Under the pieces are notes generated by a model that saw only the letters and a list, made by a program, of their open reading frames with translations, had not been told where the DNA came from and did not search any database. The position numbers and the translations under genes were made by a program. Below, in pieces: positions 2,749-23,025 of a stretch of 23,508 nucleotides of DNA. How positions within the stretch are numbered: the stretch's first letter is position 1; each line of letters opens with the position of its first letter. The stretch is from a virus. The DNA is taken from positions 74,353 through 97,860 of IMG/VR virus record IMGVR_UViG_2857776322_000004. The stretch is one strand, 5' to 3'.

Positions 2749-3708
2749 ATGGCGGCTACGCCCCCGATCAAGCTCTCCAATGTCGACGCCGCACTTTTGC
2801 CCCGCATCCTGACGGGGCCGATCTTCGAAAAGAGCGTCGAGCAGTCCGCGGTCATGCAGCTGTCGAAGCGCATCCCGCTCGCGATCGACACGACGACCAG
2901 CATCCCGGTGCCGCTGGACGTGCCTACGGCCGACTGGGTCGGTGAGGCCCAGCGCAAGCCGATCTCCTCCGGCGCGGTCGCGATCAAGACCATGACCGCG
3001 AAGAAGATCGCGGTCCTGATCCCCGTGTCCGAGGAGGTCGCCAAGACCAACGCGGGCGGGCTGTGGACACAGCTCCAGAACGACCTGCCCACCGCGTTCG
3101 CCAGGGCCTTTGACTTCGCGACCATCCACGGCAAGACCATGCGCGGTGCGACGGGCCCGTTCGCGGACTACCTGACGAAGACCTCGCAGTCCGTCACGCT
3201 CGGTACCGCGACCAAGGCCAACGGCGGCCTGTGGGCCGACTTCGTGACCGGCATGAAGACGATCACGAACAACGACTACGACCTGACCGGGTTCGTCGCG
3301 GACTACCGGCTGAAGCCGGACCTGATGCTCTCGACGGACCTGAACGGGCGGCCGTTCTTCGCCGACACCACGACCTCCCCGGTCACCGACCGGGCGCTGT
3401 CGGGTTCGCTGCTTGCGCAGCCCCTGGCGTACTCCCGGTCGGTGTCCGGGAAGCAGCGCCGCCAGTCCACCTCCACCGACACCGGCCTGCGGGCCGTCGG
3501 CGGCGACTGGTCGCAGACCGCCTACGGCGTCGGCATGGACATCACCGTGCGCATCTCCAACGAGGCGACCTACATCGACGAAGAGGGCGCCGTTCACAGC
3601 GCGTTCCAAGAGAACTTGGTTTTGCTCCTGGCGGAGGCGTACTACGGCTACGTCCAGGGCGACGACGACGCGTTCGTCAAGTACGTCGGCACCCCCAGCG
3701 GTTCGTGA
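2749..3708 (+). CDS. Major capsid protein (HK97 fold), 319 aa
   Basis: ADWVGEAQRKP, KKIAVLIPVSEEV, GGDWSQ, SAFQENLVLLLAEAYYG motifs; ATG 2749 follows AGGA inside track ORF 2260..3708. Confidence 0.93.
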   Translation: MAATPPIKLSNVDAALLPRILTGPIFEKSVEQSAVMQLSKRIPLAIDTTTSIPVPLDVPTADWVGEAQRKPISSGAVAIKTMTAKKIAVLIPVSEEVAKTNAGGLWTQLQNDLPTAFARAFDFATIHGKTMRGATGPFADYLTKTSQSVTLGTATKANGGLWADFVTGMKTITNNDYDLTGFVADYRLKPDLMLSTDLNGRPFFADTTTSPVTDRALSGSLLAQPLAYSRSVSGKQRRQSTSTDTGLRAVGGDWSQTAYGVGMDITVRISNEATYIDEEGAVHSAFQENLVLLLAEAYYGYVQGDDDAFVKYVGTPSGS

Positions 3709-4718
3709 CCACGACGGCGGCGAGGCCGCTGCGCATCGTCGCCCGCATGGGCCAGTACCCGCCCGCGCACAACGCCGGCGGCGAGATCGCGACCCACGCC
3801 ATGCTGCGCGCCCTGGTGGCACGCGGCCACGACGTCTCGGTGTGGCTCGCCCGCTACGGCTCCGCCGCACGGCCCTACGAGGTCGACGGTGTGCGCGTCG
3901 TCCCCTTCGAGACCCAGGCCGACTTCGACACCGCGCTGCGCCGGTCACACGCGGTGCTCGGCCAGTACGAACTGGTCCCGGCGACACGGGCGTTGGCGAA
4001 CGGCTACGGCAAGCCCCTGATCGTGCCGGTGCACACCTCGCGCCCTCCGACACTGCGGAATCTGGTGGCCGGCACCACGGCGCTTGCCGTGCACAACTCC
4101 CAGTGGGTCAGCCGGGAGGCTGAAGCGCTCCTTGCGGAGCAGCCCGACGCGACGCGCCCGAACGCGTCGATCGTGGTGCGGCCCCCGGTGGTCGCCGCGG
4201 AGTACGCGACGACACCGGGGGACCGGGTCACCCTGGTCAACCCGTGCCACGAGAAGGGCGGCACGGTGGTGCGGGAACTCGCCCGACGGATGCCCGACAC
4301 CGCGTTCATGGTGGTGGCCGGCGCCTACGGCGAACAGGTCGACTACACGGGCCTGAACAACGTGAGCGTCGTCGGCCACACCGCCGGCGCCGCCGCCATG
4401 CGGGACCGGGTCTATGCCCGCTCCCGCATCGTGCTCATGCCCTCCACCTACGAGTCGTGGGGCAGAGTCGCCGTCGAGGCCATGGCGTCCGGCATCCCCG
4501 TGATCGCCTCGCCCACACCCGGCCTGCGCGAATGCCTCGGCGACGCCGGGACGTTCGCCGACCCGCGCGACATCGACGCGTGGGAGACGGCGCTGCGCCG
4601 ACTGGAGAAGCCCGCCGCCTGGAAGGCGGCGTCGAGCCGGGCGCTCGCCCGGTCGGCGGAACTCGATCCCACCGACGACCTCGAGGCGTTCGTGAGCGCC
4701 GTCGAGGCTCTGCACTGA
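3705..4718 (+). CDS. Glycosyltransferase family 4 (GT-B fold), 337 aa
   Basis: N-terminal YPP..AGGE..H..LRAL...GHDVSV, a KG motif, and the EX7E motif (PSTYESWGRVAVEAMASGIPVIAS). GTG overlaps the capsid stop codon (GTGA). Confidence 0.88.
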   Translation: MTTTAARPLRIVARMGQYPPAHNAGGEIATHAMLRALVARGHDVSVWLARYGSAARPYEVDGVRVVPFETQADFDTALRRSHAVLGQYELVPATRALANGYGKPLIVPVHTSRPPTLRNLVAGTTALAVHNSQWVSREAEALLAEQPDATRPNASIVVRPPVVAAEYATTPGDRVTLVNPCHEKGGTVVRELARRMPDTAFMVVAGAYGEQVDYTGLNNVSVVGHTAGAAAMRDRVYARSRIVLMPSTYESWGRVAVEAMASGIPVIASPTPGLRECLGDAGTFADPRDIDAWETALRRLEKPAAWKAASSRALARSAELDPTDDLEAFVSAVEALH

Positions 4719-21495: not shown

Positions 21496-21987
21496 TCAGG
21501 CGCTGTGTTCGCGAGGGGCGACCGCGTCCAGGTCCCGGACGGCGGTCTGAGCCCTGCGCAGGTCGGCTTCGACCCGTTCCCGCCATGCCTCGATGCGCTG
21601 GCGACGCAGCCGGGCGGGGTCGTCGTTCGGTTCGAGCGGGTGGACCTCGGCGTCGAGGTGTTCGCGGCACACGCGGATGGCGGGTTCGGCCTCGTTGTCG
21701 CAGGTGGGGACCCAGCACAGTTCGGCGACGCTGGTGCCCTCGACGGTGTATCGGGCTCCGCCGGTGGTGAAGGTCTCGCCGTCGGCCTCGACGTCGATGT
21801 GGGGGTTGGCGTGGTAGTCGGAGAGGGCGAGGTGTCCGGCGAGGGCGATGATCACGGTGGCGCTGATCTCGGCGGTGCCGCCGTCGGTGGTGGGGACGTC
21901 GATGCGTCCGCCGGTGGCCGCGCGGGCGAGGTAGCCGGTGCTGTTCGCGGTGATGGCTTCGGTCACGAGGTCGTAGAGCTTGGTCAT
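21496..21987 (-). CDS. Hypothetical protein, 163 aa, with a C-x4-C-x10-C-x2-H motif and C-terminal coiled coil
   Basis: AGGAGGA RBS; ATGA overlap with the HTH gene; begins MTKLYDL within track ORF 21496..22203. Confidence 0.75.
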   Translation of the reverse strand: MTKLYDLVTEAITANSTGYLARAATGGRIDVPTTDGGTAEISATVIIALAGHLALSDYHANPHIDVEADGETFTTGGARYTVEGTSVAELCWVPTCDNEAEPAIRVCREHLDAEVHPLEPNDDPARLRRQRIEAWRERVEADLRRAQTAVRDLDAVAPREHSA

Positions 21988-22223
21988 TGCGGGTCCTCCT
22001 GGGGCGTGGTGTGCAGGTCGGTGCGGGCGCCTTGTCCGGGCCGGTTGGCTTTTGCGTCGCGAACGGCTTGGGCGTTGTAGAGGTTCTGGCCGCCACGGCC
22101 GGGCTGTCGGCCTACGGGTTTGACGCCCCAGCGGCGGAGGGTGACGCGGGCGGAGTCGGGGTTGCCGGCGCGGATGTGGGCGGCGGCTTGGGCGAGGGTC
22201 CACGTCTCGGTAGGTTCGGACAT
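21984..22223 (-). CDS. Small HTH DNA-binding protein, 79 aa (Aca-like candidate)
   Basis: WTLAQAAAHI.....SARVTLRRWG HTH pattern, LY.A..V wing and RPGQGARTDL tail; GGAAGGAG RBS. Confidence 0.75.
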   Translation of the reverse strand: MSEPTETWTLAQAAAHIRAGNPDSARVTLRRWGVKPVGRQPGRGGQNLYNAQAVRDAKANRPGQGARTDLHTTPQEDPQ

Positions 22224-22297: not shown

Positions 22298-22627
22298 TCA
22301 GTTGCGGTTCTCGACCTCGTCCTCGACGCCGTCCTGGGGGTAGGTGGCGGCGAAGGCTTCGCGGATGGCCTGTTCGGCGTTGTCGCTGATGGTGATCCAG
22401 GAATAGGTGTCGAGGTCGCTGGGGTTGTCCTCGGCCAAGTCCGGCCGGATGGGGCGCTTGGAGATGATCGTCGCGCCCTCGCCGTCGATCGCGATGATGT
22501 CCGCGAGGAAGCTGTGGATCGCGTCGTGTGCTTCGCGGTCGCTGCCGACGTATTTGCGCATGTCGTCGAGGAGGTCGTAGGGGTGGATGGTGCGGCCGGT
22601 GCGGTGGCTCGCGATTTCGGTGGTCAT
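22298..22627 (-). CDS. Small acidic hypothetical protein, 109 aa (anti-CRISPR candidate)
   Basis: GAAGGAG RBS; about 23 D/E against 10 K/R by hand count; first gene of the leftward unit. Confidence 0.75.
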   Translation of the reverse strand: MTTEIASHRTGRTIHPYDLLDDMRKYVGSDREAHDAIHSFLADIIAIDGEGATIISKRPIRPDLAEDNPSDLDTYSWITISDNAEQAIREAFAATYPQDGVEDEVENRN

Positions 22628-22680: not shown

Positions 22681-22710
22681 AACCTTGCTACACAGTGAAG
22701 CAAAGTTCAA
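22681..22710 (-). promoter_or_regulatory. Leftward promoter overlapped by a 27-bp imperfect palindromic operator
   Basis: Minus strand TTGAAC-N17-CAAGGT; palindrome AACCTTGCTACAC-A-GTGAAGCAAAGTT at 22681-22707; AT-rich island. Confidence 0.6.
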
Positions 22711-22741: not shown

Positions 22742-22820
22742 GTTCGGCGATCCACTGCACACCCGTCGGGACGACCCGATACGGTCTACATACCGGCACC
22801 GCTTCGGCGGGATCGGTAAC

Positions 22821-22995
22821 CTGCTCCCCGCATCTGCGGGGATGGCCCTGATTACAGGGGCGCCAGGCACTGCTCCCCATGCATATGGGGATGGCCCGGA
22901 TTCGATGGGCAAGCTGCATTGCTCCCCGAGCACTCGGGGATGACCCTGATTGCAGGGGTGCCCGACCTTGTTCCCCGCGCATGCGGGGATGCGAA
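22821..22995 (+). CRISPR. Orphan type I-E-like CRISPR mini-array: 4 repeats, 3 short (20-nt) homologous spacers, 49-nt period
   Basis: Repeats start at 22821 CTGCTCCCCGCATCTGCGGGGATGGCCCT, 22870 CTGCTCCCCATGCATATGGGGATGGCCCG, 22919 TTGCTCCCCGAGCACTCGGGGATGACCCT and 22968 TTGTTCCCCGCGCATGCGGGGATG (3'-degenerate). They resemble the I-E repeat GTGTTCCCCGCGCCAGCGGGGATAAACCG. No cas genes are in the window. Confidence 0.88.
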
Positions 22996-23003
22996 GCCCC
23001 ACC

Positions 23004-23025
23004 GCCTCACGGTGGTGAGGCTTTT
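23004..23025 (+). terminator. Intrinsic terminator closing the mini-array transcript
   Basis: GCCTCAC-GGTG-GTGAGGC-TTTT immediately after repeat 4. Confidence 0.7.

Follow-up and report, generated by a model that had tools for sequence, protein, structure and literature searches.

The question raised by this locus is what a prophage does with four type I-E-like CRISPR repeats separated by spacers of only 20 nt. The locus lies in a stretch of 23,508 nucleotides, here called the window, which is prophage DNA as indicated by its capsid, tape-measure-like, endolysin, holin and tail-fibre matches. The answer that we consider fairly probable is that the array is a three-guide mimic of crRNA, which likely loads the I-E Cascade of a host and blocks the gene of a small, probably toxic membrane protein situated in the CRISPR locus.

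The array and the prophage that carries it

The repeats at 22821, 22870, 22919 and 22968 and the three 20-nt spacers, claimed by a sequence-only reading of the window, were confirmed by re-reading and by Tandem Repeats Finder (period 49, 3.5 copies, score 156). The array and its surroundings comprise the following features.

21984..22223, minus strand: small basic protein of 79 amino acids, behind the 109-aa gene; phrog_34233 (a PHROG of unknown function)
22298..22627, minus strand: orphan gene of 109 amino acids, divergent from the array; anti-CRISPR candidate by position only
22685..22703, no strand assigned: imperfect palindrome, likely an operator, in the promoter region of the divergent operon
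22755..22785, plus strand: predicted array promoter, with a -35-like element at 22755-22760 and a -10-like TACGGT at 22780-22785
22792..22816, plus strand: predicted 5' leader hairpin with a UUCG loop (core 22799-22810), from conservation and folding
22821..22849, plus strand: repeat 1, I-E-like, 29 nt, with a predicted Cas6e hairpin; its last 8 nt are the predicted 5' handle of guide 1
22850..22869, plus strand: spacer 1, 20 nt, matching an AAC-flanked target of a same-genus I-E locus over a 15-nt run at the PAM-proximal end, with position 12 free
22870..22898, plus strand: repeat 2, its stem preserved through double changes
22899..22918, plus strand: spacer 2, 20 nt, of the same guide family, with a related variant in the same-genus prophage L316
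22919..22947, plus strand: repeat 3, its stem in competition with spacer 2 in equilibrium folds
22948..22967, plus strand: spacer 3, 20 nt, agreeing with the same-genus host guide at 17/20 positions, with a mismatch to the known targets at seed position 5
22968..22991, plus strand: repeat 4, terminal, with an intact hairpin and a terminator in place of the 3' handle
22994..23025, plus strand: intrinsic-terminator-like hairpin and T run (fold z -4.55, 0 of 200 shuffles)

The canonical I-E layout, with a period of 61 nt, near-identical repeats and unrelated 32-nt spacers, is absent here, and arrays of 61-nt period occur in relatives. The three window spacers share a length of exactly 20 nt and show kinship with each other as well as with host guides. 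A six-pair CCCC/GGGG stem held in 36 of 36 cells with three double changes (four window and two host repeats, a small set); conservation as good as this was reached by 2 of 500 shuffles, and slid controls fell short. The array is real and under selection. The window repeats retain the Cas6 hairpin and the 8-nt handle, and the stem of repeat 1 has a probability of 1.00 in local folds; repeat 3 may misfold in the precursor, where spacer 2 can pair with it and the probability of its stem was 0.00-0.58 by span in equilibrium folds. Owing to this competition, three equal 49-nt products are not assured. The match to repeat 4 ends at about 22991 and the terminator-like hairpin follows. The promoter was placed by the occurrence of the same hexamer at the equivalent position in L316 and L317 and also leans on what we take to be the streptomycete consensus; a scan with the sigma-70 consensus gave no match for the array. 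Rfam returned five weak matches in the window, none of them over the array.

The window was described earlier as free of cas genes. This holds, and G000, the genome to which the window belongs (10.96 Mb, 98.6% complete), likewise gave no match in profile searches for Cas7, Cas6e and Cas8e. A comparison of the repeats with the host's I-E cas locus, proposed as a check, could be made with a same-genus locus, G000 itself being without an I-E system; Cas8e was found in seven of ten same-genus genomes. The strict I-E repeat pattern matched G000 ten times, four matches being the array and the other six isolated, and no second I-E array was detected with this pattern. No AAC-flanked target for the window spacers was found in G000, and its self-target scan gave three non-self 12-nt runs, fewer than a rough chance estimate. 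The array is probably idle in this lysogen, as Cascade and target are both missing from G000. The prophage belongs to a soil actinomycete, and the array likely acts in streptomycete hosts.

Some further observations concern the same genome. A 12-nt run of spacer 2 occurs behind GAG at G000:C1:1847717 (minus strand), where it overlaps the start and the ribosome-binding site of what we take to be a terD-like gene; the match is within chance. No att duplication of the nearby tRNA-Pro was found. Directly behind the capsid gene lies a family-4 glycosyltransferase (window 3231-4718, a weak GT4-conflict match), and further glycosyltransferase-like ORFs are present upstream in the prophage.

The divergent 109-aa gene recurs with such arrays. 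Homologues were found in 7 of 400 family genomes, six of which face an I-E mini-array across a palindrome-bearing promoter region (L316-L322); the palindromes at the equivalent place in six related loci were read by eye. The protein gave a confident model (pLDDT 83) and had no Pfam, PHROG or PDB-sequence match, and no viral fold at E≤0.001; viral contigs gave no relative, and none of the known Acrs was seen next to the array. In L318 and L322 the 109-aa homologue is followed by an ORF resembling the 79-aa protein; in L075 such an ORF is one gene farther away. The 109-aa gene and the array together look like an anti-CRISPR cassette, although none of these searches linked the protein to a known Acr. 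A DNA-binding (Aca-like) role of the 79-aa protein is a guess from its sequence.

Host guides and their targets in type I-E loci

Regions of 13-18 kb around 20 of 28 cas8e matches, 349 kb in total, were fetched blind to the spacers. One of them, L036, from the same genus, contains a degenerate unit of repeat, 20-nt spacer and repeat at the far end of a normal 61-nt array, with 80% identity to window 22821-22893. The guide spacer of this unit has positions 1-11 and 13-15 in common with window spacer 1 and 17 of 20 letters in common with window spacer 3. On the opposite strand, at a distance of about 215 nt, AAC is followed by a 15-nt run to spacer 1 with position 12 free. It is the sole site with the PAM and a 15-nt run for any window spacer in the 349 kb (1 of 20 regions), and in this blind test 2 of 3000 shuffled spacers equalled it. 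L036 and the Embleya record L056 are one element and were counted once.

The L056 target is located about 70 nt upstream of a 40-aa ORF with one helix, in the I-E locus; the promoter and the toxin identity of this ORF are predicted. The ORF is on the opposite strand relative to the target, has a weak -10 match, falls outside the 72-aa family described below and gave no homologues. A cas promoter is excluded at this site, which is situated past both cas2 and the array. Such a guide-target module was present in one of ten same-genus genomes, and no targets were found within 1.5 kb of cas8e in the 28 loci. Two of the three matches to AAC and seed among 11 genomes of the genus (L081 and L082) are within coding regions, lack a guide and were discounted as chance, and G119 from the family scan was also judged a chance match.

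The three window spacers differ in their fit to known targets. The run of 15 between spacer 1 and the L056 target was reached by none of 100,000 shuffles against eight targets, a figure that is not blind, four of these targets having been found through the seed. Spacer 2 has a run of 7 and matches three Streptomyces GATTC targets at 10-11 of 15 positions, with a mismatch at position 8; spacer 3 matches at 12-13 of 15 positions, with a mismatch at seed position 5 against every known target. No perfect-seed target for spacers 2 and 3 was found among the eight host targets. At least nine PAM-proximal nucleotides are shared with one of the eight known host guides by spacer 1 and not by spacers 2 and 3, and plasmid blastn with units 2 and 3 gave no match over 80% of the query. 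A guide variant close to spacer 2 is carried by L316, a same-genus prophage cut by the contig end. Spacers 2 and 3 look like versions for unsampled strains. Judged by their letters, the window spacers are variants of one guide family that is also found in streptomycete I-E cas loci.

A scan of all GTDB species genomes for the handle and seed gave 16 loci, of which 12 without a flanking hairpin were dropped. The four retained, L056, L059 (Streptomyces olivochromogenes), L069 (S. adustus) and L070 (Streptomyces sp.), are all in I-E loci and all have an AAC-flanked target within 230-355 nt, a property that the scan pattern did not require; Cas6e is encoded in all four genomes. In L059, L069 and L070 guide and target match along 12-14 nt except at position 6 (and 12), and a 72-aa ORF has its ribosome-binding region within the target. 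That Cascade does not pair positions 6 and 12 is established (see also PMC8501985). Two membrane helices were predicted for the 72-aa protein by hydropathy and by a two-helix model (mean pLDDT 69). It has 11 relatives at E≤0.001, those named to species all being Streptomyces, and could not be assigned to a family in Pfam, PHROG or Atlas.

The 72-aa neighbour protein, used alone as the query, led to four more modules. Each lies between casA and cas3 and is followed by a two-repeat guide. The search of 401 genomes with this protein gave nine matches and two true modules; five of the nine were examined, and the three weaker ones had no guide in the stretch examined. Both plasmid matches proved to be modules, and the 72-aa-type ORF is missing from both plasmid gene tables. 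The Streptomyces modules with this type of ORF and a guide are L059:3673-3891, L069, L070, L160, L161, L169 (NZ_CP109386.1) and L170 (NZ_CP108603.1).

Each of the eight host modules contains a partial target for its guide, preceded by an AAC PAM. Six different seeds occur across the eight, each fitting its own target and not those of the others, and the guide-target runs are 7-15 nt, the weakest being in L161 (7) and L170 (9). For the seven Streptomyces modules the best guide match was sought in the 300 nt upstream of the ORF; AAC stood before every one of these matches, with a -10-like hexamer 15-19 nt ahead of the PAM and the 72-aa-type ORF 16-54 nt after the PAM or at it. The modules with this ORF adjoin cas3 or sit between cas3 and casA. 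The layout of CreTA and CrePA, that is, a crRNA-like guide, a PAM-flanked partial target and the promoter of a neighbouring ORF, recurs in eight of eight modules, the promoter being predicted. By analogy with these systems the presumably repressed 72-aa ORF probably encodes a toxic membrane protein; as the protein has no family assignment, the label 'toxin' rests on position and analogy. The ORF and its guide together make up a candidate CRISPR-repressed toxin family.

As regards the surroundings of the modules, those of L160, L169 and L170 are flanked by a 37-71-nt duplication of the cas3 3' end, as if inserted between cas3 and casA; no duplication of such length was seen in L161 or L070.

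Guide length and the handle-spacer hairpin

The host guides are 20, 21, 20, 20, 21, 21, 32 and 33 nt long. As six of the eight are of 20-21 nt, the length of the window spacers is not a phage design: it is common to the host guide and not an invention of the phage. Spacer-blind scans over 16-29 nt gave a similar picture for viruses, 49 of 65 distinct viral units having 20-21 nt and one having 26 nt (close relatives unmerged). The Cas7 count follows the stoichiometry of the E. coli Cascade, and the dominance of 20-21 nt fits a Cascade shorter by two Cas7; the earlier suggestion of four Cas7 subunits is reasonable.

The same guide family occurs at 20 nt in L001, L003, L075 and L087, often as the last unit before a terminator, and versions with other seeds are present in L097, L108, L115, L127, L140, L156 and L158. 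Among 88 short spacer candidates from viral and metagenome contigs, 13 agree with a host target in at least nine of 15 positions, in part by chance. The proposed search for I-E arrays of 49-nt period elsewhere showed that the viral class is recurrent (L094, L098, L104, L123, L126 and L155, at 49-51 nt). Tandem arrays with short spacers had been thought unusual; this did not hold, 30 Cracr arrays, four of them three-spacer I-E arrays, being described in the available text of Liu et al. (10.1101/2024.10.29.618823).

Several observations were made on viral and cas loci during these scans. The arrays of L094, L098, L104, L123, L126 and L155 are viral I-E arrays with two to four short, often mutually related spacers. 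Widespread, too, is a single guide of 20-21 nt that has a handle hairpin and a terminator of its own (L100, L101, L105, L111, L113, L134, L137, L138, L145 and L159), the contigs being viral and of 52-58% GC. Streptomyces phage Vondra (MT451981.1; L035:2880-3190) and five related phages have an unannotated, cas-less, degenerate I-E mini-array with spacers of about 31-33 nt between genes 52 and 53. A second viral guide family, starting with GATGC, occurs in L001 and L003, as the spacer before the GATT-family guide, and in L103 and L115; it gave one 12-nt run in the cas region L051, without the usual PAM. Cas8e matches in L036:8040-9496, L008, L018 and L028 lie in open frames of 1,611-1,856 codons, which suggests cas3-cas8e fusions or overlapping frames.

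Each predicted mature guide of the window pairs its 5' handle with its spacer, around nucleotides 7-12. This fold was found in 22 of 22 family members of host and viral origin, including all eight host guides, with a mean energy of -8.7 kcal/mol compared with -3.9 kcal/mol for 142 ordinary crRNAs. Among the 22, pairing with the guide's own handle was better than with the array consensus handle in 16, equal in four and worse in two, and position 12, which is free of target pairing, was C or T in every case. Because the family was picked by the CC of the handle and the G run of the spacer, part of this 22-member signal is built in. A set of 33 dereplicated viral short guides chosen blind to the spacer gave a handle-spacer energy of -4.74, compared with -3.18 with swapped handles (0 of 2000) and -3.00 with shuffled spacers (0 of 300); 384 ordinary crRNAs had no excess over their own shuffles. 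These folding comparisons point to a handle-spacer hairpin that is selected and apparently new. It may keep the G run off the stem of the next repeat, protect the RNA or tune loading. As host guides carry it too, the hairpin is no mark of a decoy.

Mode of action and relation to known systems

From what can be read in the DNA, namely repeats, spacers, terminator, kinship with host guides, co-varying AAC targets and their position at small membrane ORFs, we infer the following course. The array would be transcribed up to its terminator and the transcript cut by host Cas6e to 49-nt guides, which would load a Cascade with about four Cas7. This complex would bind AAC and the seed at the start of the safeguard ORF via positions 1-5 and 7-11(15), without triggering Cas3, and would repress the ORF, presumed toxic, while the guides compete with the immune crRNAs; with three spacers, target versions that differ between host strains would be covered. 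In this manner the phage would weaken CRISPR immunity without setting off a suicide back-up of the host. Of the two functions suggested at the outset, that of non-cutting guides for repression is supported by the PAM-flanked 15-nt target of spacer 1, the near-identical host guide adjacent to it and the co-variation in the family. That of multi-copy decoys does not appear to be the main one; competition for Cascade probably accompanies repression.

The target specificity of the guides could also mean that repression of the divergent cas3/casA promoter is what matters, as in a mimic of CreR such as the Salmonella CracrIE array, the small ORF being a bystander. In the seven Streptomyces modules cas3 or casA does start, on the opposite strand, at a distance of about 145-285 nt from the target, and the available text of 10.1101/2023.03.10.532045 places the target of the Salmonella CreR some 140 bp upstream of casA and has a single CreA of Haloarcula repressing both promoters. 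The spacing of the target is, however, fixed (15-19 nt) to the -10 hexamer of the ORF and not to the cas start, and the same-genus target lies downstream of the entire cas operon and array, which makes this explanation rather unlikely. Still less probable is that the units are plain Racr-like decoys that soak up Cas6e, Cas7 or Cascade, their spacer likeness being a relic of the capture of a host guide. Spacers 2 and 3, having no perfect-seed target, would fit such decoys, and a handle folded onto spacer nucleotides 7-12 could hinder the loading of Cas5 and Cas8; moreover, spacer-mutated Cracrs still compete for Cas (10.1101/2024.10.29.618823) and I-E Racrs exist (PMC10651486), according to the parts of these sources available. 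Decoys would not account for seeds kept across unrelated phages, nor for the same handle hairpin in all eight co-varying host guides. An inter-viral mini-array directed against competing phages, or an ordinary array in decay, is very improbable and already largely refuted by the guide-target co-variation and the double changes that keep the stems: the spacers are uniform in length and mutually related, the one family of seven viral contigs with AAG and all 17 non-flipped positions of spacer 2 consists of contigs 88-100% alike and of 43-47% GC, thus one event and unlike streptomycete phages, and the 15-base viral scans gave 18, 55 and 22 matches, at or below a rough chance estimate of about 100.

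With repression of the small membrane-protein gene as the preferred reading, the window array belongs, on the features that can be tested in its sequence, to the Cracr arrays. Liu et al. (10.1101/2024.10.29.618823), in the available text, list 219 Cracr candidates, with repression of casA by an I-E array and silencing of CreT by I-F Cracrs among the cases described, and demonstrate the mechanism experimentally; CracrIF, a 49-nt I-F guide, was seen by cryo-EM with four Csy3 subunits. Like the Cracrs, the window array is found on a mobile element outside any cas locus, and its guide family may be included in Table S2 of that preprint. The CracrIE array of the Salmonella prophage described there represses the casA promoter, whereas the predicted target of the window array is the start of a small membrane ORF. 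The length in common with the host guide and the handle hairpin are further differences from the known Cracr arrays. Also related is CracrIF1/2 with AcrIF24, where, in the same text, a viral mimic of the CreA antitoxin silences a toxin that guards CRISPR; that system differs in being of type I-F, in having an RNA toxin and in a viral guide shorter than that of the host, by which it escapes AcrIF24.

On the host side the likeness is to CreTA (PMC12055562) and CrePA (10.1101/2024.01.05.574328), which, in the parts available, share the crRNA-like guide, the short ORF and the PAM-flanked partial target at a promoter. The I-E CreTA of Citrobacter rodentium has a toxic peptide and CreA between cas3 and casA, the ORF being of 96 bp and its toxicity shown (PMC12055562). 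In contrast, the Streptomyces ORFs here form a two-helix family of 72 aa and the Embleya ORF has 40 aa and one helix, with toxicity predicted, and the target in the Streptomyces modules is downstream of the -10, unlike that of C. rodentium as given in the available text. Racrs (Camara-Wilpert et al., PMC10651486) are likewise phage-encoded repeat mimics without cas genes, including I-E ones, but according to the accessible text are solitary repeats without a target that form an aberrant Cas6-Cas7 subcomplex without Cas5 and Cas8; the window array has four repeats, three spacers, full units and a target for spacer 1. Further literature on the topic, likewise available in part, includes 10.1101/2023.03.03.530964 and 10.1101/2024.12.27.630466. 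No streptomycete I-E module of guide and membrane ORF was found in the literature covered, subscription papers being mostly outside it, nor was a handle-spacer hairpin found in a blunt search of the same coverage. The array class itself is known, and what is apparently new is the toxin-like predicted target and the handle-spacer hairpin.

It is tempting to speculate further that streptomycete I-E loci hold a family of CRISPR-repressed membrane toxins, that the actinophage answer to it consists of the 109-aa protein as an Acr together with guides in several versions, and that the handle-spacer fold is a selected switch for competition; this more extended view is tentative and we hold it to be possible. 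For most comparable mini-arrays of phages no target is known, while here a host module, guide, PAM and target are in hand; with the co-variation of guide and target over six seeds, this makes both sides directly testable in laboratory Streptomyces. If the interpretation is correct, toxin-silencing Cracrs would be extended from type I-F to type I-E and a candidate actinophage Acr would be indicated. A handle-spacer folding rule for natural short guides would follow, which could aid in finding them and in the design of CRISPRi guides, and antibiotic-producing streptomycetes would possess a candidate membrane-protein safeguard of their CRISPR systems.
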